A stretch of 33,027 bases of DNA, taken from positions 1 to 33,027 of the forward strand of contig CAZGXS010000001.1 in assembly GCA_964529935.1 (NCBI GenBank). The letters are read 5' to 3'. Shown here piece after piece: positions 3 to 33,016 of this stretch. The DNA is from an uncultured bacterium (GTDB taxonomy: Bacteria; NPL-UPA2; JAADIA01). Each line of letters starts with the position of its first letter. Position 1 is the first letter of the stretch. Below the pieces are notes generated by a model. That model searched no databases and was not told the DNA's origin. It saw only the letters and a program-made list of their open reading frames with translations. Both the position numbers and the translations under genes were made by a program.

Positions 3-605
3 TATATTAACTACACGGCTATATCCGGGGACGGGTGGGCCACATCGTTGTGTACCACGCCGGATTTCCAATCCGTTTCCAGGAAGGGTATTATCTTCTA
101 CCCGCCTAATAAGGATATTTGCCTCTTTCCGGAAAAAATCCAGGGGAGATACTGGGCGCTTCACCGACCCCATAATGAGGGTTTTGGCAAGCCGTCAATC
201 TGGATTTCATCATCACCTAATTTGCTTGATTGGGGAGAGCATCAGTGTCTTATTCGTCCCCGTGACAACAAATGGGAACGGATAAAGATCGGGGGAGGGG
301 CACCGCCGCTGAAGACTAATCAGGGCTGGCTGGAGGTATATCATGGCAAAGGGGACGATTCTATCTATTACTTGTTTGTGCTCCTCCTGGATTTGGAAGA
401 TCCCACCCGGGTTATCGCCAGAGGTAAAAAGCCGTTTTTAGCACCGAAAGAAGATTATGAAACTAACGGGTTTTTCCCCAATGTAGTTTTCTCCAATGGC
501 ATGGTTGAGCGTCCAAATGGAGAGGTTTACCTTTACTACGGAGCTAGCGATGAAAGCACAAATCTGGTTATCACCAGCGTTCGTGAGCTCTTGACTGATT
601 TGTAA
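3..605 (+). CDS. GH130-family glycosidase / beta-mannoside phosphorylase-like protein, 5' end outside window
   Basis: The frame is open from the window edge, so the TTG at 48 is only an ORF-caller start. The C-terminal half is paralogous to the CDSs at 1967 and 2912 (GRYWALHRP, GWLEVYHG, PKEDYE..GFFPNVVFSNG, YLYYGASD). Confidence 0.8.
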   Translation, partial: YINYTAISGDGWATSLCTTPDFQSVSRKGIIFYPPNKDICLFPEKIQGRYWALHRPHNEGFGKPSIWISSSPNLLDWGEHQCLIRPRDNKWERIKIGGGAPPLKTNQGWLEVYHGKGDDSIYYLFVLLLDLEDPTRVIARGKKPFLAPKEDYETNGFFPNVVFSNGMVERPNGEVYLYYGASDESTNLVITSVRELLTDL

Positions 606-617
606 CGGAGGTGGGAG

Positions 618-1745
618 ATGAGAATAGGAATTGTATCTACATATCCGCCCATTGAATGCGGGATAGCTACTTATACCTACTATTTGAGGGATGCTTTGGA
701 GCAAAAGGGAAACGAAGTATATATTTTTAGTCAATACGGGGCTAAGGGTGATTATGTCTTTGGCACCTATTCAGCGCAGGAGAAAAGCATCGCGGCCAAT
801 ATTTTTGAGATGGTTTCTAAAATGACTCCGGATATGCTTCATATTCAACATGAATTTGGTCTTTACGGCCACTCGTCCGGGAAACAGGTGCTGGAATTAG
901 TTTTTAAATGTCAGCGCCTATCCGGTCTCCCGGTAGTGGTAACATTTCATACCGTACAGGAGAAGTTCTTGCCTGAGCAGGAGTACATCGTTAGTTCACT
1001 GATTCAGGAAAGCAGGGCTATTATTGTTCACGAAGCCTATCATCAGAAAATACTGACGGAACATTTTGGACAAGCTGATAAAATTTATGTTATTCCCCAT
1101 GGAGTGCGTGAAGTAGAAGAAGTTCCTGAGGCGCGCCGGAAAATAGGCGTGGAAGGAAAAAAGGTTATCCTTCTCTGCGGGTATCTGCGGGAGACCAAAC
1201 GGTTTGACCGGATAGTGAAGATTTTTCCTGAGGTAGCTAAAGCTGTAGATGATGTCGTTTTAGTAGTAGCGTCAAAATCGCGTAGCGTGGATCATCCGGA
1301 ATATCAGAGGAAGTTCTATCGGATGATTGAAGAATCACCCGCAACGGACCGGATTATAGTTCTCCACGGGCAGTTTCCCCAGCCTATTTTTGATACCATC
1401 GTATCTGCGGCCGATGTAGTCCCTTTCCCTTATGAAATAGGCGGGCAAAGCGGTATTATGGCACATTGTTTTGCTTTTAGCAAACCGGTGGTTACCTCCG
1501 GACTTAGCTCTTTTCGGAGCTGGGTCGAGGCCTCGGGAGGCGGCCTGGTGGCTAATTCTGATGAGGAATTTGCCGAGCATCTCATCAAGATATTGACAGA
1601 CGATAAGTTGAGGGCGCGGCTGCGCCAAAATATTGCCAAATTTGTCAGCGAGAAAGTTTCCTGGAAAGTTGTGGCGGATCAGCATCTAAATATTTACCGG
1701 AAATATGCCTGGCAGCCCACGCCCAGGTCAAGGCATTTTGGATAA
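618..1745 (+). CDS. GT4-family (GT-B fold) glycosyltransferase
   Basis: 375 aa. The N-terminus MRIGIVSTYPP..CGIATY is typical of GT4 enzymes, and the C-terminal half carries an E-x7-E-like region (PYEIGGQSGIMAHCFAFSKPVVTS). GGAGGTGGG SD lies just upstream of ATG 618. Confidence 0.8.
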   Translation: MRIGIVSTYPPIECGIATYTYYLRDALEQKGNEVYIFSQYGAKGDYVFGTYSAQEKSIAANIFEMVSKMTPDMLHIQHEFGLYGHSSGKQVLELVFKCQRLSGLPVVVTFHTVQEKFLPEQEYIVSSLIQESRAIIVHEAYHQKILTEHFGQADKIYVIPHGVREVEEVPEARRKIGVEGKKVILLCGYLRETKRFDRIVKIFPEVAKAVDDVVLVVASKSRSVDHPEYQRKFYRMIEESPATDRIIVLHGQFPQPIFDTIVSAADVVPFPYEIGGQSGIMAHCFAFSKPVVTSGLSSFRSWVEASGGGLVANSDEEFAEHLIKILTDDKLRARLRQNIAKFVSEKVSWKVVADQHLNIYRKYAWQPTPRSRHFG

Positions 1746-1760
1746 GCAACTACTTAGGTT

Positions 1761-1950
1761 ATCCGGTTCACGGTTCACGGTTCACGGTTAAAAAACGAAC
1801 ATAATCCAACCAACTGTAAACTGTAAACTAACTGTGAACCTTTGAACTGTGAACCTTTAAGCCCTGTGAACGGTTACTAAATCATAGTGGCTTAGCTTCA
1901 CTGTTTTGTAACCTTGAACGGTGAACCCTTGAACCCTTGAACCCTTTACC
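1761..1950. repeat. Composite tandem-word array: (GGTTCAC)x3, (CTGTAAA)x2, (CTGTGAACCTTTGAA)x2, (GAACCCTT)x3
   Basis: Read directly: GGTTCAC x3 at about 1765-1785; its complement GTGAACC at about 1834, 1848 and 1921; GAACCCTT x3 at about 1923-1946. It fills the 220-nt GT4/GH130 spacer. Confidence 0.9.
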
Positions 1951-1966
1951 GAACGAAGTGAGGCAT

Positions 1967-2911
1967 ATGTTCAGAAGAAAAACGATAGCTAGAGATGTTG
2001 TACACCGCTGGGAGGGTAATCCTCTGATTAGACTTGAAGATTTAGGTTTTCAGTGTGCTGATCTGCGCTCGGCGGGGGTGGCATCCTACCAGGATAATAT
2101 CATTCTTCTCGTTACCATTGAACATCTGGCCGGGTTTCAATCCATACATCTGGCCAGGCGTGATGAGAAGGGCAGTTTTCATATTGAGAAAGAACCCTTC
2201 CTTGGCCCTCGCCGGGATCCTTTAGAGTTCGGACAGCACGAGTCACATGGGGTTATGGATGCCAGAGTAACTTTAATGGAAGGAGTTTATTATATTGTCT
2301 ATCTGGCTAGCGGTGAGCATGGTTTCCGGCTGGGACTGGCCACCACGAAAGATTTTGTCAAGGTCGAGCGCCAGGGTTTAATTTCAGAGCCGGATACGAA
2401 AGCCGGGGCACTTTTTCCTGAGAAGTTCAAGGGACGCTATGCCCGGTTAGGCCGTCCGCGGGAGGGGAATAGCATCTGGGTCAGTTATAGCCGTGACCTG
2501 GTCTACTGGGGCGATAGCGAACTTCTTTTATCGCCGAGAGCCGGCTTTTGGGATTCTTCCCGGGTGGGGGCCGGCCCCCCTCCGATGAGAATTCCTGAGG
2601 GGTGGCTGTTAATATATTATGGCGTGAAGAAGACCCAGGCTGGGCCTTTGTTCCGATTGGGGGCAGCTATCCTGGATGGAGCTGATCCTACCAGGATTAT
2701 CAGTCGGTCGAATATCCCCATCCTCTCACCGCGCGAAGATTATGAGCGGGTTGGCGACTTGAGCAATATCGTATTTTCTACGGGCGTATTGGTCAAGAAT
2801 AACCAGGAGATGGATATCATTTACAGCGGAGCCGACAGTTGCCTTTGTCTGGGAAGCACAACCGTTGAGGAAATTGTGGAAACCTGCTCTCGGAGCAAGG
2901 AGGAATTTTAA
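1967..2911 (+). CDS. GH130-family glycosidase / beta-mannoside phosphorylase-like protein
   Basis: Motifs RWEGNP, GRYARLGRP, GWLLIYYG, PREDYE..G...NIVFSTG, IIYSGADS. ATG 1967 places RWEGNP 13 aa from the N-terminus, the same spacing as the paralog at 2912. The ORF-track start at 1937 lies inside the tandem repeat. Confidence 0.85.
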   Translation: MFRRKTIARDVVHRWEGNPLIRLEDLGFQCADLRSAGVASYQDNIILLVTIEHLAGFQSIHLARRDEKGSFHIEKEPFLGPRRDPLEFGQHESHGVMDARVTLMEGVYYIVYLASGEHGFRLGLATTKDFVKVERQGLISEPDTKAGALFPEKFKGRYARLGRPREGNSIWVSYSRDLVYWGDSELLLSPRAGFWDSSRVGAGPPPMRIPEGWLLIYYGVKKTQAGPLFRLGAAILDGADPTRIISRSNIPILSPREDYERVGDLSNIVFSTGVLVKNNQEMDIIYSGADSCLCLGSTTVEEIVETCSRSKEEF

Positions 2912-3844
2912 GTGGTGTCACGACAGCCTCTAGATAAAGATTTACTGCAGCGCTGGGAGGGTAATCCGGCCATTACTATGGAGGATATTCCTTTCCGGGC
3001 CAACACGGTGTTTAATGGCACGCCCATAGTTACCGAGGAAGGGGTGTTGCTTCTGTTGAGGGTTGAGGGACAGCAGGGATACTCCATGTTTGCCCTGGCC
3101 CGAAGTCGGGATGGATTGCGCTTCCAGGTTGATGAGAAGCCGGTGATGATGCCGGAAAGAAGCGGACCTTTTGCCAAGTATGAATCTAGAGGTATAGAAG
3201 ATCCCCGGGCCACATTCATAGAAGATACTTGTTATGTAGTCTATACGGCTGTAGGCAAACGTGGCCCCCGGATTGCTCTTGCTAAAACCAAGGATTATGT
3301 TAACTACGAACGCCTGGGGCTTATTTCTGAGCCTGGGAATAAAGATGGGGTCCTTTTTCCCAGGAAGATTAAGGGCCGCTATGCCCGGCTTGACCGACCT
3401 CTAGGCGGGGGCCGCGGTAGTATCTGGATATCGTATTCACCCGACCTGCTCAATTGGGGCGATTCGGAGGTGATTATGACACCCCGGAGCGGTTATTGGG
3501 ATGATTTTCGTATTGGGGCTTCTGTACCCCCCATAGAGACTGATGAGGGCTGGTTGGAGATTTATCATGGGATTAAATTGACCTCATCCGGGGCGATTTA
3601 CCGTGTCGGAACGGTTCTGCTTGATCTTGATGACCCGGCGAGGGTTATCAAGCGCAGTTCCTCACCTATCTTATCGCCGCGTGAAAATTATGAGCGCATT
3701 GGTGATGTTCCCAATGTGTGTTTTGCCTGCGGCGCGGTAATTGATCCTGATGGCAAGATAAAAATTTACTATGGAGCGGCGGATACATCCATTTGTGTGG
3801 CCCTGGGCACGCTGGAGCAGATTCTCAGGGAGAGTTTTAATTAA
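2912..3844 (+). CDS. GH130-family glycosidase / beta-mannoside phosphorylase-like protein (tandem paralog)
   Basis: Motifs RWEGNP, GRYARLDRP, GWLEIYHG, PRENYE..GDVPNVCFACG, IYYGAADT. The GTG start sits immediately after the upstream TAA, with AAGGAGG 7 nt upstream. Confidence 0.85.
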   Translation: MVSRQPLDKDLLQRWEGNPAITMEDIPFRANTVFNGTPIVTEEGVLLLLRVEGQQGYSMFALARSRDGLRFQVDEKPVMMPERSGPFAKYESRGIEDPRATFIEDTCYVVYTAVGKRGPRIALAKTKDYVNYERLGLISEPGNKDGVLFPRKIKGRYARLDRPLGGGRGSIWISYSPDLLNWGDSEVIMTPRSGYWDDFRIGASVPPIETDEGWLEIYHGIKLTSSGAIYRVGTVLLDLDDPARVIKRSSSPILSPRENYERIGDVPNVCFACGAVIDPDGKIKIYYGAADTSICVALGTLEQILRESFN

Positions 3845-3850
3845 CTGCTC

Positions 3851-3932
3851 AGGTTATCAGGTTCACAGTTCAAAGGTTCACGGTTAGTTGGGTCATGTTC
3901 ATTTTTTAACCGTGAACCGTGAACCGCGGAAC
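3851..3932. repeat. GGTTCAC/GTGAACC hairpin element (same word family as 1761-1950)
   Basis: GGTTCACGGTTA (about 3875-3886) is perfectly complementary to TAACCGTGAACC (about 3907-3918), with a 20-nt loop. It shares the 5' boundary AGGTTATC.GGTTCAC with the array at about 1755. Confidence 0.9.
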
Positions 3933-3963
3933 TTTAAACCTAAGTAATTAACCAAGGGGTTAC

Positions 3964-5340
3964 ATGCTAACGGGAATAAAAAAAGTTCATTTCATTGGTA
4001 TTGGAGGAGCGGGAATGAATGGCCTGGCCGCAATTCTCCGGGAACAAGGCTTGGAGGTGAGCGGTTCGGATATAAAAGAAAGTCATATTACGGAACGGCT
4101 TAAGTCCCGGGGAGCGGTAATTTATTCTAGCCATAAAGAGGAGCATTTGCAAGAGGCTGACCTCGTAGTTTTTTCTTCAGCTATCCCTTCGGGCAATGCG
4201 GAGCTTAAAGCCGCCCGGAGGCGAGGGATTTCTCTTCTTTCCCGGGGAGAAATGTTAGCGAAGCTAATGAAGGAAAAAAAAGGAATTGCTGTTGCCGGCA
4301 CTCATGGAAAGACAACTACTACTTCTATGGCGGCCTTGATTCTGGAAGAAGCGGGACTATCTCCGACGATAATTATTGGCGGGGAGGTAAACGACAAAGG
4401 AGGAAATGCTCAGTTGGGTCAGGGAGAATATCTGTTAGCTGAGGCTGATGAGAGTGATGGTTCCTTCTTAAAGCTATCTCCCAAGCTGGCGGTAATCACC
4501 AATATCGAGGCAGATCATCTGGACTATTACTCCAGCCTGGAAATGGTAATCGCCGCTTTCGAGAAGTTTGTGGAGAATATTTTCCCGGGAGGTATCCTCA
4601 TTTTTTGTTCCGATTGTCCGAATGCAGGGAAGATGCGGAAGCGAATCCGGTCCGGAATAGAGATCTTAACTTATGGTTTGGGGAAAGAAGCTGACCTCAG
4701 AGTTGAGCATCTCTGCCAGGAGGAGTTAGGATCAAGATACGAGGTTTTCTACTATGGATCCCGGTTGGGGGAAGTGAGACTTCCGTTACCGGGGAAGCAT
4801 AATGTTCGCAATTCGCTGGCTGCCCTGGGGATAGGGCTGAAAGTGGGAGCGAATTTCTCCGGGATGTGCTCCTGTCTGGAAAAATTTCCCGGAGTAAAAA
4901 GAAGATTTGAAATAAAAGGAAATTTTAAAAATATTATGATAGTAGATGACTATGCTCATCATCCCACTGAGATCAGGGCTATTCTTGAGGCCGCTAGAGC
5001 TAAGAAAAGAGAAAGAATTATTACCGTATTTCAACCTCATCGTTATAGCAGAACCAAATTTATAAAAGAGGAGTTTGCTTCTGCTTTTCAGGGAACCGAT
5101 GTTTTGGTGCTCACTGAAATCTATGCAGCGGGAGAGGAACCTCTGCCGGGAGTAAGCGGTCGGGCTCTTTTTGAAGCTGTTTGGAAAAAGAGGCAAAAAG
5201 CAGTTGAGTTTATCCCTGATAAGTCTCAGATCGCTGATTATTTAATGTCTATTCTCCGGCCTGGGGATCTGGTCATTACTATGGGAGCAGGAGATATCGG
5301 AACGGTGGCTGAGGAGATAGTTGAGAAGTTGAAAAAATAG
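3964..5340 (+). CDS. murC: UDP-N-acetylmuramate--L-alanine ligase
   Basis: 458 aa. N-terminal fold GIGGAGMNGLA, Mur-ligase P-loop GTHGKTTTTSM, DHLDYY. It heads the murC-murB-ddl-ftsQAZ order. Confidence 0.95.
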   Translation: MLTGIKKVHFIGIGGAGMNGLAAILREQGLEVSGSDIKESHITERLKSRGAVIYSSHKEEHLQEADLVVFSSAIPSGNAELKAARRRGISLLSRGEMLAKLMKEKKGIAVAGTHGKTTTTSMAALILEEAGLSPTIIIGGEVNDKGGNAQLGQGEYLLAEADESDGSFLKLSPKLAVITNIEADHLDYYSSLEMVIAAFEKFVENIFPGGILIFCSDCPNAGKMRKRIRSGIEILTYGLGKEADLRVEHLCQEELGSRYEVFYYGSRLGEVRLPLPGKHNVRNSLAALGIGLKVGANFSGMCSCLEKFPGVKRRFEIKGNFKNIMIVDDYAHHPTEIRAILEAARAKKRERIITVFQPHRYSRTKFIKEEFASAFQGTDVLVLTEIYAAGEEPLPGVSGRALFEAVWKKRQKAVEFIPDKSQIADYLMSILRPGDLVITMGAGDIGTVAEEIVEKLKK

Positions 5341-5380
5341 TGAATAGTAGTTAGTGAATAGTAGTTAGTAACCATTCACT
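5339..5380. repeat. (AGTGAATAGTAGTT)x2 followed by inverted ATTCACT
   Basis: A 14-nt unit is repeated twice, starting inside the murC stop codon. AGTGAAT and ATTCACT can form a 7-bp stem. Confidence 0.85.
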
Positions 5381-5395
5381 GGTAATTGAATATCG

Positions 5396-6299: not shown

Positions 6300-6344
6300 T
6301 TAGTGAATAGTGAATGGTGAATAGTGAATGGTGAATAGTGAATG
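6300..6344. repeat. (GTGAATR)x6, equivalent to (GTGAATAGTGAATG)x3
   Basis: Six perfect heptamers alternating A/G at about 6303-6344. The last unit contains the ddl GTG start codon. Confidence 0.95.
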
Positions 6345-7354
6345 AAGTAATCCGGGATGCGAAAATAGCCGTCTTGATGGGAGGACCATCCAGTGAGAGG
6401 GATATTTCCCTGAAGTCGGGGAAGGCGGTGGAGGAAGCTCTCCAAAAAGTCGGTTTAAAGGTTGTGCCTATTGTTGTGGATGAAGATATGGAGGAAAGAT
6501 TAAAGGAAGAGAGGGTAGGGGTAGCTTTTATTGCCCTTCACGGAAGGTTCGGTGAAGATGGCACTGTCCAGGAGATACTGGAACGATTAAGTATTGCCTA
6601 TACAGGCTCAGGAGTAGAAGCCAGTAGAATAGCTTTTGATAAGGCGGTTTCCAAGAAAATTTTCCTCAAGGAAGATATAGCTACTCCCGCTTTTTATGTT
6701 TTGGAAAAGGGGGATAAGAAAGAGAAGATGGTCTCTCAGTTTCCTTTCCATCCAGTTATAAGAAATCCGCTCGTTGTTAAACCGGCCCGGGAGGGTTCTA
6801 CCCTAGGTGTATCCATTATTAGAGGGGAAGAAGAATATTTAACTGCCCTTGACAGAGCTTTTCAGTATGATAGGAAAATATTGGTAGAAGAGTATCTAGA
6901 TGGTCGGGAAGTCACCGTGGGCATCTTAAATGGTTCTCCTCTGCCGGTTATCGAGATCCTTCCCCAGAGAGAATTTTTCGATTTCCAGGCCAAGTATACG
7001 GAGGGTTTAACTAATTTTAAGGTTCCTGCTCCTCTACCCCCGGATATTTACGAGGAGACTCAGGCTCTGGCTCTTCAGGCTCACCGGGCGCTGGATTGTC
7101 AAGGTATGTCCCGGGTAGATATAAAAGTGAATAGCTCCGGAAAACCCTATGTCCTGGAGGTGAATACTATCCCCGGAATGACTTCCTTAAGCCTCTTGCC
7201 GAGGGCAGCCCGGGCAGCGGGGATAAGTTTCCCGCAGTTATGTTGTAAATTAATTGAAATTGCCTTAAGAGATAAGGCACAGAGGCACAAAGGCACAGAG
7301 GCACAAAGGAAGAAAAGGCACAAAGGGAAAAAGGCACAAAGGGGAAAACAATAG
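6338..7354 (+). CDS. ddl: D-alanine--D-alanine ligase with repeat-encoded basic C-terminal tail
   Basis: ATP-grasp enzyme: KIAVLMGGPSSERDISLKSG, HGRFGEDGTVQ, EVNTIPGMT. GTG 6338 is the only start upstream of the conserved N-terminus (in-frame TGA at 6332-6334). The last ~26 aa are translated from AGGCACAR repeats. Confidence 0.93.
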   Translation: MNEVIRDAKIAVLMGGPSSERDISLKSGKAVEEALQKVGLKVVPIVVDEDMEERLKEERVGVAFIALHGRFGEDGTVQEILERLSIAYTGSGVEASRIAFDKAVSKKIFLKEDIATPAFYVLEKGDKKEKMVSQFPFHPVIRNPLVVKPAREGSTLGVSIIRGEEEYLTALDRAFQYDRKILVEEYLDGREVTVGILNGSPLPVIEILPQREFFDFQAKYTEGLTNFKVPAPLPPDIYEETQALALQAHRALDCQGMSRVDIKVNSSGKPYVLEVNTIPGMTSLSLLPRAARAAGISFPQLCCKLIEIALRDKAQRHKGTEAQRKKRHKGKKAQRGKQ

Positions 7355-7418
7355 CCAATACTTACAGTTTTTTAAGTTTTTTAACTCTGTGCCTCTGTGC
7401 CTAATTTGCATGTGCCTT
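7271..7418. repeat. AGGCACAR hairpin element, full copy 1
   Basis: (AGGCACAR)x4 plus two spaced AAGGCACAAAGG units at about 7275-7342. Loop core AATACTTACAGTTTTTTAAGTTTTTTAACT. Inverted arm CTCTGTGCCTCTGTGCCT (about 7385-7402) plus TGTGCCTT. Confidence 0.9.
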
Positions 7419-7443
7419 CTCGCACCGGAGGTGCGTTAGTTTA

Positions 7444-8270: not shown

Positions 8271-8378
8271 CACAGAGTTTCTCAGGATTCAAGGATTCAA
8301 GGATTTGAGGGTTTTTTTAAAGATTTTCCCTTGACCCCTTGAATCCTGGACCCCTTGAACCCTTATTCTTTCTCTGTG
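8271..8378. repeat. AGGATTCA / CCTTGAA hairpin element
   Basis: CAGGATTCAAGG (about 8283-8294) is perfectly complementary to CCTTGAATCCTG (about 8337-8348). There is a tandem 8-mer on the left arm, a T7 run in the loop, and an outer CACAGAG/CTCTGTG pair. Confidence 0.9.
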
Positions 8379-9677: not shown

Positions 9678-9733
9678 CACGCCTCACGCCTCACGCTACA
9701 GACTACAGGCTTTCAAGCGTGAAGCGTGAAGCC
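9678..9733. repeat. CACGCCT / AGCGTGA hairpin element, copy 1
   Basis: (CACGCCT)x2 plus CACGCTA, loop ACAGACTACAGGCTTTCA, then (AGCGTGA)x2 AGCC. The arms pair over about 17 bp with two C-A mismatches. Confidence 0.9.
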
Positions 9734-9770
9734 TATCTGGTGCCCTGGTGCTCATTAAGGAGGAGAGAAA

Positions 9771-10952
9771 ATGTTAGAATTTAAGGATGAGTTTGATTGT
9801 GAAGTCGATATAAAGATTATCGGAGTAGGAGGCGGAGGAAGCAACGCTGTTGACCATATGGCTGAGGCAGCTCTTTGCGGTATAGACTTTATTGCCGTCA
9901 ATACCGATGCCCAGGCTTTGAGGATGTCTTCTTCGCCTCAGAAGATTCAAATCGGGACAGAATTAACAAAAGGACTAGGTTCGGGAGCCAATCCGGAGAT
10001 TGGGCGAAAGGCGGCCTTCGAAGATCGAGAGAGGATTGCTGAGGCCTTGAAGGGAGCGGATATTGTTTTTATCATCGCTGGATTGGGAGGAGGAACAGGG
10101 ACTGGGGCCAGTCCGGTAATTGCCGAGGTAGCCAAAGAGGCAGGAGCTTTGACGATGGCTGTGGTTACTAAGCCCTTCCTTTTTGAAGGAAGAAAGAGAA
10201 GCCTCCAAGCAGAATCTGGACTGAAAGAGTTGGAGGGTAAGGTGGATACCTTGCTCTGTATTTCTAACCAGAAACTCTTTGCCTCAGCGGAAGAGGAGGC
10301 CTCTTTCCTCGATGCCTTCAAGATGGCTGACGATGTCCTTCTTCAGGGGATAAAGGCTATCTCTGATCTGATTACTGTCCCGGGGCTTATAAACTTAGAT
10401 CTGGCCGATGTGAGAACAATTATTTCTGAGGCGGGGGGAGCTCTCCTGGGAGTTGGTTTCGGCCGGGGAGTGGATCGGGCCAAGAGGGCGGCGGAGGGAG
10501 CGATCACCTGCCCCTTGTTAGAAAAAGCGGATATAAGTGGAGCCCGGGGAGTATTAGTTAATATTACGGGAGGTCCGGACTTAAGCCTGCGGGAAGTGGA
10601 GGAGGCTACTATCACTATCTATGAGACGGTAGATGTAAATGCCCATATTATTTTCGGGGCGGTCTTCGATAAATCTTTAAAAGGAGAAATGAAGGTGACC
10701 GTCCTGGCTACGGGACTGAAGAATGAAAGGGAAGAGGAACAACTCAATCTGGCGCTGGACAGTTTTTCTCAATTCCCGGTCGCCGAGGTGACGACCTCGG
10801 ACAAAAGAGGCTTTTTTGGGAGAAAAAGGAAAAAGAAGGTCGCTATTCCAGAAGGATTTATCAAAGAGACAGCCTTGAATAGTAACCTGGATATACCTGC
10901 TTTTCTCAGACGGGGGAAGGGAGGGGGCGCAATGATGATAGATGGACATTAG
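9771..10952 (+). CDS. ftsZ: Cell division GTPase FtsZ
   Basis: GVGGGGSNAV, tubulin signature GGGTGTGASPVIA, C-terminal peptide DIPAFLRR. AAGGAGG SD upstream. Confidence 0.97.
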   Translation: MLEFKDEFDCEVDIKIIGVGGGGSNAVDHMAEAALCGIDFIAVNTDAQALRMSSSPQKIQIGTELTKGLGSGANPEIGRKAAFEDRERIAEALKGADIVFIIAGLGGGTGTGASPVIAEVAKEAGALTMAVVTKPFLFEGRKRSLQAESGLKELEGKVDTLLCISNQKLFASAEEEASFLDAFKMADDVLLQGIKAISDLITVPGLINLDLADVRTIISEAGGALLGVGFGRGVDRAKRAAEGAITCPLLEKADISGARGVLVNITGGPDLSLREVEEATITIYETVDVNAHIIFGAVFDKSLKGEMKVTVLATGLKNEREEEQLNLALDSFSQFPVAEVTTSDKRGFFGRKRKKKVAIPEGFIKETALNSNLDIPAFLRRGKGGGAMMIDGH

Positions 10953-12513
10953 GAAGCAATTATTAGCGGGGGAGATAGGGACTTGTTACAAGAAAGAAGC
11001 GGAGGTTTCGGTGCTCCTTGTCTATCCTAATAGCTACTTTGTGGGGATGTCCAGTTTAGGATTTCAGACGATCTATTATCAGTTGAACCAGCGTTCGGAT
11101 ACCTACTGCCAGCGGCTGTTCCTTGACTCTTCTCCTCCCCTATCGCTGGAGAAAGGATGGCCGGTAAGCAATTTTGATATCATCGCTTTCTCTGTATCCT
11201 TTGAGCTGGATTATCTGAATATCTTGAAAATATTAGATGTAGTTGCCATTCCTTTAAAAGGAGGAGAAAGGAGCGATGGCCATCCTTTGATTATAGCCGG
11301 AGGGATAGCCGTTTCGGCCAATCCGGAGCCTCTCGTGGAATTCATTGATCTTTTTGTCATCGGGGAAGGGGAAGAGGTTATTCATGAGGTTATTGATGCA
11401 TATAAGACAGTCGCTAATCAACGTCCCCTCCTCAGCAGAAAAGAAATTCTTAAAAAGCTAGCTGAAATTGAGGGTATTTATATCCCCGGATTTTATCAAG
11501 TCTCTTATAATGAAGATGGAACAGTAAAAGCCGTTGAGGCCAGAGACGTTCCCGGAAAGATTAAGAGAAGATGGATAAGGGATATTGACAACTATCCAAC
11601 TGTTTCCCGCATCTTGACCAAAAATACGGAGTTTGGGGATATGTATTTGCTGGAGATCAGTCGGGGATGTCCGGAAAATTGTTATTTTTGTTTGGCCAGC
11701 CATATTTATCGCCCCTGGCGAGTGAGAAGTTTAGAAAAGATATTAGAACAAGCGGAAGAAGGACGGAAACACCGAGAGAGGATAGGACTTATTTCGAATC
11801 TTGCCTCCCGCCATCCCCGGGTGGAAGAGATTTGTTCGCAGGTGTTAAAAATGAAAGGGAGGATCTCCCTATCCTCTCTCCGACCAGGAACTTTGAGCAA
11901 GACTTTGATTCGGTCCCTGGAGGAGAGCGGACAACGGACGATTACCTTGGCTCCGGAAACGGGGTCGGAGACCTTAAGGAAAACTCTTAATAAAGACATC
12001 AGCAACGAAGATATTCTGAGGTCAGTGGAATTGATAGCTAACTTCGCCGTTCCCAACCTTAAGCTCTATTTCATGATTGGTTTCCCCGAGGAAAAAGACG
12101 GAGACATGGCAGCTATTATCGATTTAGTGACTAAGGTAAAAAAGATATTGATGAGGGCAAAAAAGTCAGGTAGAATTACTGTTAGCGTCAATCCTTTCGT
12201 TCCCAAAGCTTCTACTCCTTTCCAGAGGGTAAGGATGGAGGAGGGAAAGACGCTTTCCCGGCGCCTCAAAATCCTGAAAAAGGGACTCCGGGGTTTAGGG
12301 AATGTCAAATTGATTCACGAAAGTATTAAGTGGAGCCTTTGGCAGGGGCTCCTTTCCCGGGGCGACCGACGGTTAGGAAATGTTCTCCTCTCAACCTATA
12401 GATGGGAAGGAGATTGGAAGAAGGCTTTAAGGGAAGAAGGGCTGGATAAGTTTTTCTATCTGCATCGGGAAAGAGGAAAAGAGGAAATATTGCCCTGGGA
12501 TCACCTAATTTAA
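10942..12513 (+). CDS. B12-binding-domain radical SAM protein of unknown function (resembles the TIGR03960-type uncharacterised family)
   Basis: 523 aa. CX3CX2C motif in SRGCPENCYFC. The N-terminal LLVYPNSYFVGMSSLGFQTIYYQLN is typical of this family. ATG 10942 overlaps the last 11 nt of ftsZ. Confidence 0.8.
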   Translation: MDIRKQLLAGEIGTCYKKEAEVSVLLVYPNSYFVGMSSLGFQTIYYQLNQRSDTYCQRLFLDSSPPLSLEKGWPVSNFDIIAFSVSFELDYLNILKILDVVAIPLKGGERSDGHPLIIAGGIAVSANPEPLVEFIDLFVIGEGEEVIHEVIDAYKTVANQRPLLSRKEILKKLAEIEGIYIPGFYQVSYNEDGTVKAVEARDVPGKIKRRWIRDIDNYPTVSRILTKNTEFGDMYLLEISRGCPENCYFCLASHIYRPWRVRSLEKILEQAEEGRKHRERIGLISNLASRHPRVEEICSQVLKMKGRISLSSLRPGTLSKTLIRSLEESGQRTITLAPETGSETLRKTLNKDISNEDILRSVELIANFAVPNLKLYFMIGFPEEKDGDMAAIIDLVTKVKKILMRAKKSGRITVSVNPFVPKASTPFQRVRMEEGKTLSRRLKILKKGLRGLGNVKLIHESIKWSLWQGLLSRGDRRLGNVLLSTYRWEGDWKKALREEGLDKFFYLHRERGKEEILPWDHLI

Positions 12514-12514
12514 G

Positions 12515-12632
12515 GATAAGGCACAAAGTGACAGAGGCACAAAGGCACAAAGGAAAAGATAAAAGCTAATACTTGCAGTTTTTTTAGTTTTTTTTAACTT
12601 TGTGCCTATGTGCCTTAGTGCCTCTGTGCCTG
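12515..12632. repeat. AGGCACAR hairpin element, full copy 2
   Basis: Starts GATAAGGCACA as in copy 1. The loop core AATACTTGCAGTTTTTTTAGTTTTTTTTAACT is about 90% identical to copy 1. Inverted arm CTTTGTGCCTATGTGCCTTAGTGCCTCTGTGCCT. Confidence 0.9.
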
Positions 12633-12690
12633 TCCGTACCAGGGCTTGCCAGAACCTGCAAATCAGGGATAGAGAAGGAGGGATATTTGT

Positions 12691-14405: not shown

Positions 14406-15035
14406 ATGTTGGGAAGGAAGGAAAAAATACAATCAAAGCTGGAAGGAGAAGCGGATAAGAAAAAAGTAAAGCCGAAATCGAAAAGAGGAGGAAGGAAGCT
14501 ATCCCTTTCCCAGGAAAAGTGGCAAGAGATAAGTGAGAAAGCGAAATTAGCTGAGGAGCGATTTGACCGTCTCTTGAGACTTCAGGCGGAATTTGAGAAC
14601 TATCGTAAGAGGGTTAACAGGGAGAGAGGCGAGTTCATTCAGTATGCTTTAGAAGATTTCATCTGTGACCTCTTGCCGGTAGTTGATAATTTCGAACGGG
14701 CTATTGCCTCAGCCCACCAGCACGACAATTCTCCGGCTCTGCTTCAGGGAGTAGAGATGATTTATAAGCAGGTGCAGGATGTTTTAGCCAAGAGGGGGCT
14801 GGAGAAGATAGAAGCTCTGGGTAAGAAGTTTGATCCCCGGGAACACGAAGCCGCGATGCAGGTAGAAAGTAAAGAGCATGCGGATAATACGGTTATTGAA
14901 GAGAGCTTAGCTGGGTATAAACTCAAAGATAAGGTGATTCGACCAGCCATGGTTAAAGTTTCTACAAAGAAGGCACAAAGGCACAAAGTAGCAAAGGCAC
15001 AGGGTGAAGAAGTTAAGGACAAGAAAGCCCAATAA
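14406..15035 (+). CDS. grpE: Nucleotide exchange factor GrpE with repeat-encoded C-terminal tail
   Basis: RLQAEFENYRKR, FDPREHEA, and the conserved end RPAMVKVS. This is followed by about 24 extra residues (KKAQRHKVAKAQ...) encoded by AGGCACAA units. Confidence 0.93.
   Translation: MLGRKEKIQSKLEGEADKKKVKPKSKRGGRKLSLSQEKWQEISEKAKLAEERFDRLLRLQAEFENYRKRVNRERGEFIQYALEDFICDLLPVVDNFERAIASAHQHDNSPALLQGVEMIYKQVQDVLAKRGLEKIEALGKKFDPREHEAAMQVESKEHADNTVIEESLAGYKLKDKVIRPAMVKVSTKKAQRHKVAKAQGEEVKDKKAQ
14971..15002. repeat. (AGGCACAA)-type tandem octamers x4 inside the grpE 3' end (left arm only)
   Basis: AGGCACAA AGGCACAA AGTAGCAA AGGCACAG, read directly. No inverted TGTGCCT arm follows. Confidence 0.85.
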
Positions 15036-17102: not shown

Positions 17103-17215
17103 GTAACTACTTCAGGAGTCAGAAGTCAGGAGTCAGAATCCAGAATAGAAGAAGCACAAGCTTTCCTGTCTGTGTTAATTTCTTTCATTCTGACTCCTGA
17201 CTTCTAAGTAGTTAC
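17103..17215. repeat. Long hairpin element built from (CAGRAGT) heptamers
   Basis: The left arm GTAACTACTT-CAGGAGT-CAGAAGTCAGGAGTCAGAAT pairs with the right arm ATTCTGACTCCTGACTTCTAAGTAGTTAC. That gives about 29 bp with one heptamer bulged out and a loop of about 47 nt. Confidence 0.9.
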
Positions 17216-26386: not shown

Positions 26387-26997
26387 CCCGGGTGAAGATA
26401 TGCGGGATAACTAATCTGAAGGACGCTCAGGCGGCCGTGGAGGGGGGTGCGGATGCCCTGGGGTTTGTCTTCGCTGAAAGTCCTCGTCAGATTAATCCGG
26501 AGGTCGCAGTTGGAATTATTCGTTCCCTGCCTCCTTTTCTTACCTGCGTGGGTCTTTTTGTGGATGAATTGCCGCAGGTGGTCAAGGAGATTATAAAGGA
26601 ATGCCGATTGGATGCGCTCCAGTTTCATGGGGGAGAACCTCCTGGCTATTGCCGGCAGTTTATGATCAAAACAATCAAGGCCTTTCGCCTCAGGAACGAG
26701 GATAGCTTAGAGATTATTTCCCATTATCAGGTGGATGCCTATCTTCTGGATACCTATAGGGAGGGAATTCCCGGGGGAACAGGGCAGTCCTTCGACTGGG
26801 ATTTGGCCCTCCGGGCTAAAGAATTTTCCCGCCCGATTATCTTAGCGGGGGGGTTAAGGCCGGATAATGTAGCTGAGGCTATCGGGAGAGTTAGACCTTA
26901 TGGGGTTGATGTGAGCACCGGCGTGGAAGCGAAACCGGGGAAGAAAGACCATAAAAAGATGAAAGAGTTTATAGAAATAGCGAGGAGTGTCAGATAG
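26383..26997 (+). CDS. trpF: Phosphoribosylanthranilate isomerase
   Basis: 204 aa. VKICGIT, LQFHG, LLD....GGTG..FDW. The GTG start overlaps the trpC stop. Confidence 0.92.
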   Translation: MTRVKICGITNLKDAQAAVEGGADALGFVFAESPRQINPEVAVGIIRSLPPFLTCVGLFVDELPQVVKEIIKECRLDALQFHGGEPPGYCRQFMIKTIKAFRLRNEDSLEIISHYQVDAYLLDTYREGIPGGTGQSFDWDLALRAKEFSRPIILAGGLRPDNVAEAIGRVRPYGVDVSTGVEAKPGKKDHKKMKEFIEIARSVR

Positions 26998-27060
26998 GCT
27001 TCACGCTATACGCTGCAGGTTGCAGACTGCAGGCTTTTAAGCGTGAGGCGTGAGGCGTGA
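26997..27060. repeat. CACGCCT / AGCGTGA hairpin element, copy 2
   Basis: GGCTTCACGCTATACGCT, loop GCAGGTTGCAGACTGCAGGCTTTTA, then AGCGTGAGGCGTGAGGCGTGA. The loop core CAGACTRCAGGCTTTYAAGCGTGA is shared with the copy at 9678, in the same orientation. Confidence 0.9.
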
Positions 27061-29086: not shown

Positions 29087-30526
29087 ATGAAAACAATCTC
29101 TAAACAATCTAATCCTCTGGTGGCTATCGTTGGTCGTCCCAATGTGGGCAAATCAACCCTCTTCAATCGCCTTATCGGGGAGCGGAAATCGATAGTGGAA
29201 GCGGAACCGGGAGTCACCCGGGACAGGGTCTATGCTGAGGGGGAATGGGTGGGGAGGCAATTTTCCCTGGTGGATACCGGCGGCTTGATTCCCGATACTT
29301 CCGGGGAAATCATGAGCTTAGTCAGAAAACAGGTAAAGGTAGCTATCGAGGAAGCGGATCTTCTTATCTTCTTAGTGAATGTCCAAGAGAGGCTAACTGC
29401 TATTGATGAAGATATAGCAAAATGGTTTCGCCGGATAGATAAGCCTGTTATCCTGGTTGCTAATAAGGCTGATAATCCTCGCTTAGAAGAAGACGCGCTC
29501 TCTTTTTATCGATTGGGCTTATCTCATCCTATTCCTATTTCAGCTATGCATGGGCTTAATATTAACGAGCTCCTCGATAAGATGCTCGAGTCTTTACCTT
29601 TAAAGGGGCAAAAAGGGGAGCAGAAAGAAGGAATTAAAGTTGCCGTTGTCGGACGGCCCAATGTAGGGAAATCATCCTTCATCAATACTCTTCTTCGGGA
29701 GGAAAGGCTCATCGTTAGCGATAAGCCGGGAACAACCCGGGATGCCATAGACACTGTCTTTTATATAGGCGAGGAGAAGTTCATTTTCGTGGATACGGCA
29801 GGAATGCGGCCGAAGAGCCGGGTGAAGAAAAAGGTGGAAAGTTATAGTATAATCCGGTCCCGAAGAAGCATAGAACGCGCTGATATCGTTCTCCTTCTCA
29901 CCGATGCTCAGGAAGGGGTAACTTCCCAGGATAGCAAAATAGCCAGCTACATTTGTGAGGAGGGAAGAGGATGCATTATTGTGGTCAATAAGTGGGATCT
30001 AATAGTGGAAAGTTTAAAGTTGAAAGGGAAAAATAAAAGAAAGGGCCAAGCACCTCGGGTTGAAAGTTTAAGGTTGAAAGTTGAAAGTCAAAAAAATAAT
30101 CAACTACCCTGGGTGGAGATGAAAAAAGTGAGGGAAGAATATAGCCAAGCATTACGGGATAAGCTGAGGTTTCTGAACTTTGCTCCTTCTACCTTCATTT
30201 CAGCTTTAACTGGGGAGGGCGTATTTAAAATTATCGATTTGATAAGGATGGTAGCTCATCAGCAGACAATTCGTCTATCTTCCGGTATTTTGGGAAAAGT
30301 GTTTGAAGAAGCTAAGGACCATTATAAACCGCCTGGCGGTCAAGCTAAACCAGTTACTCTCCATCGACTCAGTCAAGTGGGGATAAAGCCGCCTACCTTT
30401 GTCCTTTTTGCCAATCATCCTCAGTTTATTGCCGACCCTTATTTGCGTTATCTCAGCAATAGATTACGTCAGGCCTTTGGATTTGAAGGGACTCCCCTCA
30501 AAATTATTCCCCGGAAGGGAAGATGA
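29087..30526 (+). CDS. der: Ribosome-biogenesis GTPase Der (EngA) with in-frame repeat insertion
   Basis: Two G domains (GRPNVGKST..DTGG..NKAD..ISAM and GRPNVGKSS..DTAG..NKWD..ISAL) plus a C-terminal KH-like domain. Confidence 0.95.
   Translation: MKTISKQSNPLVAIVGRPNVGKSTLFNRLIGERKSIVEAEPGVTRDRVYAEGEWVGRQFSLVDTGGLIPDTSGEIMSLVRKQVKVAIEEADLLIFLVNVQERLTAIDEDIAKWFRRIDKPVILVANKADNPRLEEDALSFYRLGLSHPIPISAMHGLNINELLDKMLESLPLKGQKGEQKEGIKVAVVGRPNVGKSSFINTLLREERLIVSDKPGTTRDAIDTVFYIGEEKFIFVDTAGMRPKSRVKKKVESYSIIRSRRSIERADIVLLLTDAQEGVTSQDSKIASYICEEGRGCIIVVNKWDLIVESLKLKGKNKRKGQAPRVESLRLKVESQKNNQLPWVEMKKVREEYSQALRDKLRFLNFAPSTFISALTGEGVFKIIDLIRMVAHQQTIRLSSGILGKVFEEAKDHYKPPGGQAKPVTLHRLSQVGIKPPTFVLFANHPQFIADPYLRYLSNRLRQAFGFEGTPLKIIPRKGR
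30003..30116 (+). repeat. GTTGAAA-word direct repeats inside der (in-frame)
   Basis: GTGGAAAGTTTAAAGTTGAAAGG (about 30006-30028) and GTTGAAAGTTTAAGGTTGAAAGTTGAAAGTC (about 30059-30089) flank an A-rich core. They translate as VESLKLKG...VESLRLKVES. Confidence 0.85.
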
Positions 30527-32938: not shown

Positions 32939-33016
32939 GTTATTAGCTATTAGTTATAACCTTATACCCTTACGGGCACAAGCGGGCACAAGCGAGTTAC
33001 GAGTTACTGTTTTTTT
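32939..33016. repeat. Serial tandem duplications: TTATWRSY units, (CGGGCACAAG)x2, (CGAGTTA)x2, T7
   Basis: Read directly. GGCACAAG resembles the AGGCACAR family. Any inverted arm would lie beyond the window end. Confidence 0.8.

Follow-up and report, generated by a model that had tools for sequence, protein, structure and literature searches.

Two octamer-armed hairpins in a cell-division gene cluster

The stretch analysed here (the window) is a complete NCBI contig of 33,027 nt from an uncultured bacterium of the NPL-UPA2 lineage (CAZGXS010000001.1), and the only other database record of its sequence is a 1.8-kb Logan contig that is 100% identical. The organism is represented in SRR9822617. 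The gene content is housekeeping only. The 5′ part carries three GH130 genes, a glycosyltransferase gene, murC, murB, ddl, ftsQ, ftsA, ftsZ, a radical S-adenosylmethionine (radical-SAM) gene, pgeF/yfiH and lepB, and the 3′ part carries grpE, dnaK, dnaJ, tRNA-Glu, lepA, trpE/C/F/B/A, der, plsY, gpsA and a MerR-family gene. From murC to dnaK, through the division and cell wall (dcw) genes, the layout is co-directional, and two spacers of this run hold copies of a hairpin-forming element of 110-170 bp that is built of tandem AGGCACAR octamers. Copy 1 follows ddl and copy 2 follows the radical-SAM gene, so that together they bracket the ftsQ-ftsA-ftsZ-radical-SAM block at a distance of 5.2 kb from each other (Table 1).

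The octamer AGGCACAR has 17 exact matches in the window versus 1.35 ± 1.21 in shuffled sequences, and none of 100 shuffles reached 17. These matches cluster at 7275-7339 (+) with 7387-7402 (−), at 12519-12550 (+) with 12600-12631 (−), and at 14971-15002 (+), and the inverted pairs, which lie at variable distance, were recovered as hairpin-capable inverted-repeat matches. The two copies are paralogous long imperfect hairpins, with AGGCACAR units in the 5′ arm and YTGTGCCT units in the 3′ arm. Both are intergenic and take up most of their spacers, starting at or 5′ of the upstream stop codon and ending 40-60 nt short of the next start codon. The predicted RNA fold of copy 1 (7262-7440) reached −62.3 kcal/mol (z-score −5.0) and that of copy 2 (12505-12650) −56.8 kcal/mol (z-score −6.3), and in each case none of 200 shuffles was as stable; the antisense strands of both copies folded about equally well. 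The enrichment, the anatomy and the folds confirm the octamer-built inverted element that an earlier note on this DNA had described at the two sites. The same note had placed the T-runs inside the loop rather than after the stem. They do not lie 3′ of the stem, but the placement in the loop did not stand, because the predicted loop of copy 2 measures only about 14 nt and its T-runs are mostly paired with the A-rich inner left arm (AAAGGAAAAGATAAAAGCTAAT).

The relationship between the copies was assessed by alignment. Over the core and the first right-arm units they are 89% identical (47/53), close to the figure of about 90% given before, and over the entire element they are 76% identical (86/113), whereas their flanks reach 54% and 44% in gapped alignment, which is background. 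Since the non-repetitive core is shared and the flanks are unrelated, both copies descend from one source rather than from independent slippage, as the earlier note had proposed; a segmental duplication taking in flanking sequence or genes, the alternative named there, is excluded by the background identity of the flanks.

The arrays also extend into reading frames. With A or G in its last position, AGGCACAR is free of stop codons in all frames of both strands. In Ddl (gene 6338-7354; ...RDKAQRHKGTEAQRKKRHKGKKAQRGKQ*), the final ~27 residues are the translated left arm of copy 1, with the stop codon TAG at 7352-7354. Similarly, the variable C-terminal tail of GrpE (KKAQRHKVAKAQ; gene 14406-15035) consists of translated octamers, the GrpE domain ending at residue 186 of 209, and the cluster at 14971-15002, formerly taken for a detached left-arm fragment, is instead four units within the grpE frame, 3′ of this domain. 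The Ddl and GrpE tails are different or missing in relatives. A supposed recurrence of the units near 32973 proved to be a separate repeat, the decamer CGGGCACAAG in 2.2 copies at 32973-32994, which has only GGCACAAG in common with the element.

The units of the element are 8 nt long, contiguous and inverted, in contrast to the 23-50-nt repeats with unique spacers of a CRISPR array. Only tRNA-Glu exceeded the Rfam gathering threshold in the window, and a promoter scan gave no sigma-70-like promoter in either copy.

Syntenic relatives and the history of each copy

Syntenic loci of related genomes were reached through Ddl homologues. Their Ddl proteins are 79% (L124), 77% (L126, L127 and L128), 77% (L129, from a metagenome-assembled genome (MAG) labelled Nitrospirae), 69% (L176) and 54% (NPL-UPA2 Unc8) identical to that of the window. 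Relatives with Ddl 77-81% identical carry AGGCACAA or a degenerate array at the site of copy 1. In L124 the ddl-ftsQ region has AAGGCACAAAGGCACAAAGCCACAGAGC at the 3′ end of ddl and CTCTGTGCCCTCTGTGG before ftsQ, and its loop encloses a second, nested hairpin; the L126 version is degenerate, and L126 also has hairpins nested within hairpins. AQRHK-like Ddl tails, which are translated array, occur in the window, P0002, P0005 and P0015, and L129 alone retains the native Ddl stop (...IEIALRDKA*). Because relatives carry a hairpin or array at the same site together with array-like Ddl tails, copy 1 is old, ancestral to the clade and vertically inherited, and not a recent insertion. Four orthologous ddl-ftsQ spacers, that of the window included, are all predicted to fold into spacer-spanning structures (z-scores −5.0, −6.0, −3.3 and −3.6) although their sequences differ. 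Orthologous spacers in relatives hold other hairpins, with the units ACGCAGAT, CCACAGAG, GGATTAA, ACTTAC and AAGGCGCA, and unit turnover at these spacers is rapid.

Copy 2 has a different history. Since it has no counterpart in L124, L127 or L129, it is specific to this lineage and was copied there from a copy-1-like source. Its odd unit AGTGACAG is similar to the ancestral AAGTGAAGACA. The shared start GATAAGGCACA noticed earlier is present in both copies, but it is partly pre-existing sequence: in copy 1, GAT-AAG are conserved Asp-Lys codons of Ddl, and at the site of copy 2, GGATAA already follows the stop codon of the radical-SAM gene in L124, which lacks the element there.

A composite element, with an outer hairpin of CCACAGAG type and an inner hairpin of ACGCAGAT, occupies both the ddl-ftsQ and the ftsQ-ftsA spacers of L126 (8509-8805 and 9619-9946) and of L124 (3466-3626 and 4389-4625). 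The two L126 copies contain the same nested insert of ~150 nt, and both L124 copies lack it. This pattern indicates that neighbouring copies homogenise each other, in a concerted evolution of direct repeats that flank the essential ftsQ.

Two further observations concern the relatives. In Unc8 (L175), the 297-nt spacer 3′ of ftsZ (10121-10417) consists almost wholly of stacked heptamer arrays and has GGTTCACGGTTCA and TTCTGACTCCTGACT, the heptamers of window positions 1764-1789 and 17187-17205. This shared unit vocabulary (GGTTCAC, CTGACTC) was rejected as not significant, ~0.4 coincidences being expected among about 25 × 20 arrays by our estimate. In addition, N runs that mark scaffold gaps lie in or beside the repeat-rich spacers of relatives (L126 4311-4788 and several sites in L176); such hairpins probably break short-read assemblies and are hence under-counted in MAGs.

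Comparable hairpins in neighbouring spacers

The AGGCACAR element is not a lone family, because, of the 19 spacers that exceed 30 nt, at least 11, counted by reading, are built of tandem 7-8-mers as arrays or hairpins, usually with inverted arms, and two further unit families likewise form pairs whose inner sequences are similar. That nearly every nearby spacer holds an analogous hairpin of another 7-8-nt unit had been overlooked in the earlier note. The units found in the contig include GGTTCAC, TAGTGAA, AGGATTCA/CCCTTGAA, CACGCCT, GAGTCAG, AACTTAC and AATTTAC. In one paired family, 1748-1821 and 3876-3949 form an inverted pair of 74 nt with 81% complementarity; in the other (9678-9739 and 26991-27059), the loop of the trpF-trpB hairpin resembles that of 9678-9739 in direct orientation, as judged by reading the sequences. 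The element is thus one family in a local population of repeat-armed hairpins.

As a separate observation, a T-run and then AA(C) stand directly 5′ of the right arm in hairpins of different unit families, as in the junctions TTTTTTAACT|CTGTGCC, TTTTTTAACC|GTGAACC and GCTTTTAAGC|GTGAGG; the sites lie at 7368-7386, 12577-12597, 3897-3908, 8313-8320, 27036-27042 and 9711-9716. Shared descent of the arms does not account for this feature.

Table 1. Coordinates of the two copies and of other repeat-built features in the window (TRF, Tandem Repeats Finder).
Feature	Position	Strand	Remarks
Copy 1	7263-7435	+	Between ddl and ftsQ; octamer-armed hairpin
Copy 1 left arm	7274-7342	+	AGGCACAR array, TRF period 8, 8.5 copies
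Copy 1 core	7340-7386	+	Non-repetitive
Copy 1 right arm	7385-7418	+	Inverted YTGTGCCT units
Small hairpin containing a Shine-Dalgarno sequence	7421-7435	+	3′ of copy 1 right arm
Copy 2	12508-12648	+	Between radical-SAM gene and pgeF/yfiH; predicted hairpin 12519-12631
Copy 2 left arm	12519-12565	+	TRF period 8, 4.5 copies at 12518-12553
Copy 2 right arm	12585-12631	+	Inverted units, TRF 3.9 copies at about 12598-12631
Copy 2 loop		+	~14 nt, ACTTGCAGTTTTTT; predicted fold
AAGGCACA-type units, four, in grpE 3′ end	14970-15002	+	No inverted partner nearby
GGTTCAC/CGGTTCA and other heptamer/octamer arrays	1746-1936		Spacer; inverted paralogue of 3845-3963
GGTTCAC-family hairpin	3845-3963		Upstream of murC; partner of 1746-1936
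TAGTGAA-type heptamer array	5336-5383		murC-murB spacer
TAGTGAA-type unit again	6301-6344		murB-ddl spacer
AGGATTCA / CCCTTGAA octamer hairpin	8284-8364		ftsQ-ftsA spacer
CACGCCT / AAGCGTG heptamer hairpin	9678-9739		ftsA-ftsZ spacer; paralogue in trpF-trpB spacer
CACGCT / GCGTGAG heptamer hairpin	26998-27060		trpF-trpB spacer
GAGTCAG/AAGTCAG heptamer hairpin	17112-17205		3′ of dnaK; 19-nt arms, 100% complementary
Decamer CGGGCACAAG × 2.2	32973-32994	+	Contig end; separate repeat

AGGCACAR arrays in other phyla

One genome per GTDB species was scanned for three tandem AGGCACAR units, which gave at least 120 loci; the counts below are among the matches listed, with gene context from crude gene calls and with loci that are not independent of one another. 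The listed loci belong to Opitutales, Desulfobacterales, Planctomycetota, Nitrospirota, Acidobacteriota, Spirochaetes, Bacillota, Myxococcota, Hydrogenedentota and others, in genomes of 36% to 73% GC. The eighth position of the octamer is A or G in 80 loci versus T or C in 3. Many of the matches share a layout of stop codon, (AGGCACAR)n, 7-290 nt of variable sequence, (YTGTGCCT)n and ribosome-binding site. Pairs with the purine arm first outnumber the reverse by 38 to 11, and one-directional arrays have the purine strand as the sense strand in 20 cases versus 2 (binomial p ~1e-4 for each, subject to the same non-independence). The terminus NCCACAGAGG closes 14 of 69 G-type arrays, often on both arms.

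These regularities, namely the octamer with its position-8 purine, the handedness, the sense bias, the NCCACAGAGG terminus and the bracketing of spacers from stop codon to ribosome-binding site, could mean that AGGCACAR/YTGTGCCT-armed hairpins form a single pan-bacterial element class in a dozen or more phyla, a proposal that we regard as improbable. If it were true, the class would point to a conserved trans-acting factor not yet described, for example a nuclease or a protein that binds RNA or DNA, or to a horizontally spreading element, and recurrent slippage would not explain the arrays. As the position-8 purine retains a Shine-Dalgarno-like RAGG in each unit of the 5′ arm and an anti-Shine-Dalgarno-like CCUY in the 3′ arm, such a class could act on translation. 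A uniquely special status for AGGCACAR was not borne out. A scan of viral contigs returned 22 stretches for the target versus 5, 16 and 2 for control octamers of the same composition (controls 1.4 to 11 times rarer), and each control had its own dominant eighth base; the octamer is enriched and is not an outlier.

Two sequence features beside these arrays were also observed. Many AGGCACAG arrays have NCCACAGAGG as their outermost unit, which differs by a single G-to-C change and often stands on both arms; such arrays were seen in Spirochaetes, Acidobacteriota, Myxococcota and Alpha-, Beta- and Gammaproteobacteria (L008, L035, L039, L067, L077, L078, L096 and L097, and also L124 and L126). A conserved module, TTGCCAAACGATCAAATYTCGATATGTTCTGAC, was seen in three Opitutales MAGs at ~15 nt upstream of (TGTGCCTT)n arrays, into which it is directed (L030 2232; L046, minus strand, 6481; L061 2797; L112 5353 and 6941). 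The module, which is not in the window, resembles a promoter, with a −35-like TTGCCA, about 16 nt and a −10-like TATGTT, which suggests a putative multi-copy transcribed unit in the Opitutales lineage.

Other features of the gene context

Directly 5′ of murC, at 48-3844, lie a GT4 glycosyltransferase gene and three genes of GH130 (mannoside phosphorylase-like) type, in a position at which dcw clusters usually have murG or ftsW. This GH130/GT4-murC arrangement is kept in L126 and L176, and the genes at 1937-2911 and 2912-3844 are tandem paralogues. Within der/engA (29087-30526), an in-frame 54-nt tandem duplication at 30005-30112, with GTTGAAA heptamers, encodes two 18-residue repeats (VESLKLKGKNKRKGQAPR / VESLRLKVESQKNNQLPW) directly after the NKWD motif of the second GTPase domain.

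Discussion

The feature is real, and it is not a demonstrated dispersed mobile element. To account for its origin, we propose that the arms would lengthen and shorten through replication slippage, and that whole hairpins may be copied to nearby spacers by homology-assisted copying, that is, by gene conversion or template switching. Copy 2 would have been copied via short pre-existing matches, with GGATAA as the left one and CTGTCC perhaps as the right one, and such copying would require no dedicated transposase. Once in place, the hairpins would be transcribed within the dcw-cluster mRNA, each giving a double-stranded stem of at least 25 bp that would most likely serve as a processing or stability determinant (an RNase III-type substrate), or as a pause or partial stop. 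Because a ribosome finishing ddl would have to melt the left arm, the translation of ddl could be coupled to the structure before ftsQ. Local homology-assisted copying is favoured over transposition, and from the position of the hairpins, the role favoured for them is that of a co-transcribed mRNA stem with an effect on processing, stability, pausing or translational coupling; the sense-strand bias of one-directional arrays with co-directional flanking genes (20 versus 2 among the matches listed) was counted for this mRNA role. To the joint reading, in which slippage builds the arms, local homology-assisted copying multiplies the hairpins and the co-transcribed stem is functional, we give about an even chance.

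Several results weigh against this proposal. The copying step rests on 6-nt matches in proxy "empty" sites. The ddl-ftsQ-ftsA-ftsZ spacers of L176 and NPL-UPA2 Unc8 are compact and hairpin-free, and the hairpins are therefore dispensable. Between the two copies no covariation was found (1 compensatory versus 13-21 broken pairs), so the search for compensatory changes between arms that had been suggested for the element failed; the arms pair in different registers, which makes this comparison uninformative. Sense strands fold 4 kcal/mol better than antisense strands in 23 of 30 spacers (p 0.002), but this advantage was rejected as a sign of RNA-level selection since it is compositional (−3.5 for shuffled spacers and −12.6 for coding DNA per 200 nt). 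Against Rfam, the element scored 25-28 bits with miRNA-precursor models whose thresholds are 52-85 bits, and such matches at a permissive threshold were dismissed as generic hairpin noise. Divergent and convergent gene contexts are equally frequent across phyla (18 and 18 among the matches listed); this parity fits poorly with a purely 3′-end or intercistronic role, and a terminator-like gene context across phyla was rejected on the same count.

The appearance of copy 2 in this lineage, at a site that is empty in relatives, would also fit transposition of a non-autonomous mobile element that resembles a MITE (miniature inverted-repeat transposable element) or a REPIN (a hairpin of paired repetitive extragenic palindromes, REPs), with the arrays as terminal inverted repeats and a transposase encoded elsewhere. 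The inverted termini, the conserved inner core and the unrelated flanks agree with this, the hairpin-in-hairpin layouts of L124 and L126 resemble nested insertions, and across phyla the handedness (38 versus 11 among the matches listed), the terminal NCCACAGAGG unit on both arms in several phyla and the Opitutales array-linked sequences, multi-copy within and between genomes, point the same way. Neither copy, however, has a target-site duplication (copy 1 flanks ...GAGATA / AATTTG, copy 2 flanks ...GGATA / GTCCGT), and the 33-kb contig contains no gene for a transposase, an integrase or a REP-associated tyrosine transposase (RAYT, Y1-transposase). A REP unit is a fixed 20-40-nt palindrome with a GTAG-type 5′ end that occurs as inverted doublets in genomes with a RAYT gene; the arms here consist of tandem octamers that vary and lack a GTAG-type head. 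The core is known from two copies only, at a distance of 5.2 kb, with no third in 1.4 Mb of sequence searched, which leaves the term "dispersed", used before for the element, unproven. A metagenome scan with the core returned two chance matches in AT-rich coding DNA (contigs of 23% and 33% GC) from a collection that does not contain the window itself, and is silent on dispersal. Copy 1 is orthologous to the hairpins of relatives and joined to the ddl reading frame, the arms differ in length and register, as slippage predicts, and the families of the window each form a local pair and not a scatter of copies. Mobilisation, which the earlier note had offered beside common descent, is on these grounds unlikely. 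A somewhat better case, though still a doubtful one, can be made for a neutral by-product of slippage-prone 7-8-mers and template switching at palindromes, tolerated in non-essential spacer DNA. It would account for the rapid unit turnover at orthologous spacers, the compact hairpin-free spacers of some relatives, the missing covariation, a strand asymmetry that base composition explains, the spill of arrays into frames that makes the Ddl and GrpE tails variable, and the tandem arrays that the control octamers likewise build in viral contigs (5, 16 and 2 stretches versus 22). It accords less well with a hairpin kept at ddl-ftsQ in three lineages (Ddl 77-79%) despite sequence change, with the sense-strand bias and handedness already described (20 versus 2 and 38 versus 11 among the matches listed), or with spacers grown to 80-480 nt in an otherwise compact operon.

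The remaining alternatives place the function in DNA or in transcription termination. By analogy with Geobacter metallireducens, whose intergenic sites have a matching layout, with 3-5 octamers in tandem on opposite strands and a variable distance between them (PMC2700814), the inverted tandem octamers might bind an oligomeric regulator or nucleoid protein and so loop the spacer; the purine at position 8 in 80 loci versus 3 in many phyla (among the matches listed) and the handedness bias would suit such sites. The Geobacter proposal itself was never tested, however, the 8-bp period is off the helical repeat of textbook B-DNA, unit number and spacing vary freely, and the control octamers also have a dominant eighth base, so the purine preference is not distinctive. 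Moreover, each spacer of the contig has a different unit and many different proteins would be needed, and we hold binding sites of this kind to be quite unlikely. Intrinsic terminators that close the ddl and radical-SAM transcription units would explain why each stable hairpin lies directly 3′ of a stop codon, and the small GC-rich hairpin at 7421-7435, followed by TTAGTTTAAT, was the only sequence flagged as terminator-like in the scan. No U-tract, however, comes after either main stem, the sequence beyond the stem ends at 7418 and 12631 being TCTCGCACC and GTCCGTACC, and for this reason they are not classical intrinsic terminators, as had been recognised before. The T-runs are situated 5′ of the right arm and for the most part paired, the stems far exceed canonical terminator length, the hairpins stand inside a conserved co-directional operon upstream of the essential ftsQAZ, and in other genomes the arrays are equally common between divergent genes (among the matches listed), all of which makes termination the most improbable of the roles considered, with hardly any chance of being right.

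Among known systems, REP/REPIN sequences and MITEs (Correia/NEMIS) resemble the element as intergenic hairpin repeats of 100-200 bp that are co-transcribed with their neighbours, and Correia stems are substrates of RNase III. Their hallmarks are fixed non-tandem termini, high copy number, target-site duplications for MITEs and a cognate RAYT for REPINs, none of which was found in the contig or the copies. The short tandemly repeated repetitive (STRR) heptamers of cyanobacteria form hairpins between hupS and hupL and elsewhere in Nostoc, Anabaena and Lyngbya; transcript stability, translational coupling and pausing or termination have been suggested as roles, and the role has not been established (PMC2670836). 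Like the element, they are short tandem units between co-transcribed genes, capable of forming hairpins, in spacers that are variable yet structured (PMC2670836). The STRR units, however, are usually 7 nt long, have other sequences and belong to heterocystous cyanobacteria, whereas the element is built of 8-mers, occurs in a lineage outside the cyanobacteria, with relatives among MAGs labelled Nitrospirae and NPL-UPA2, and has two copies with a common non-repetitive core. In G. metallireducens, 24 pairs of four tandem GTTGCTYN octamers lie on opposite strands at variable distance (class 1), next to TCTCCGTS[Y] × 3 (class 2) and MTYCTGA × 5 (class 3), and these "global regulator sites" were proposed, without a test, to be DNA sites of IHF/HU type (PMC2700814). 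They share with the element 3-5 tandem 7-9-mers on opposite strands at variable distance and an intergenic position (PMC2700814), but have other units and dozens of copies versus the two countable here. TAACTGA heptamer direct repeats are abundant and patchy in Beggiatoaceae, Cyanobacteria and Bacteroidetes (MacGregor 2015, citing Mrazek 2007; PMC4679880), where units of about 7 nt are held to be favoured by slippage and a role after transcription was proposed (PMC4679880). They likewise are intergenic tandem repeats of the 7-nt class, patchy over phyla; they occur as 169 direct sets versus 1 indirect, just 5′ of start codons (PMC4679880), whereas the element is an inverted pair that forms a hairpin and starts at or before the upstream stop codon. 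A literature search with the exact array sequence found no paper containing an AGGCACAR array, and single-octamer matches were primer noise. The element is best filed as an addition to a poorly understood class of repeat-armed intergenic hairpins of STRR or Geobacter type.

To our knowledge, repeat-built spacer hairpins have been noted in cyanobacteria, Geobacter and giant sulfur bacteria and have never been explained. The contig and its syntenic relatives provide a clean comparative series in the essential dcw operon, in which a hairpin stands at the same spacer in several lineages while units are swapped, hairpins are nested and neighbours are homogenised. Practical effects of such hairpins are extended reading frames, as in the Ddl and GrpE tails, and probably breaks in metagenome assemblies. 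This dcw series and the recurrence of the octamer across phyla are the points worth following, and the questions that they open are whether selected mRNA structures segment operons, how hairpins are copied without a transposase, and why one octamer recurs across phyla.

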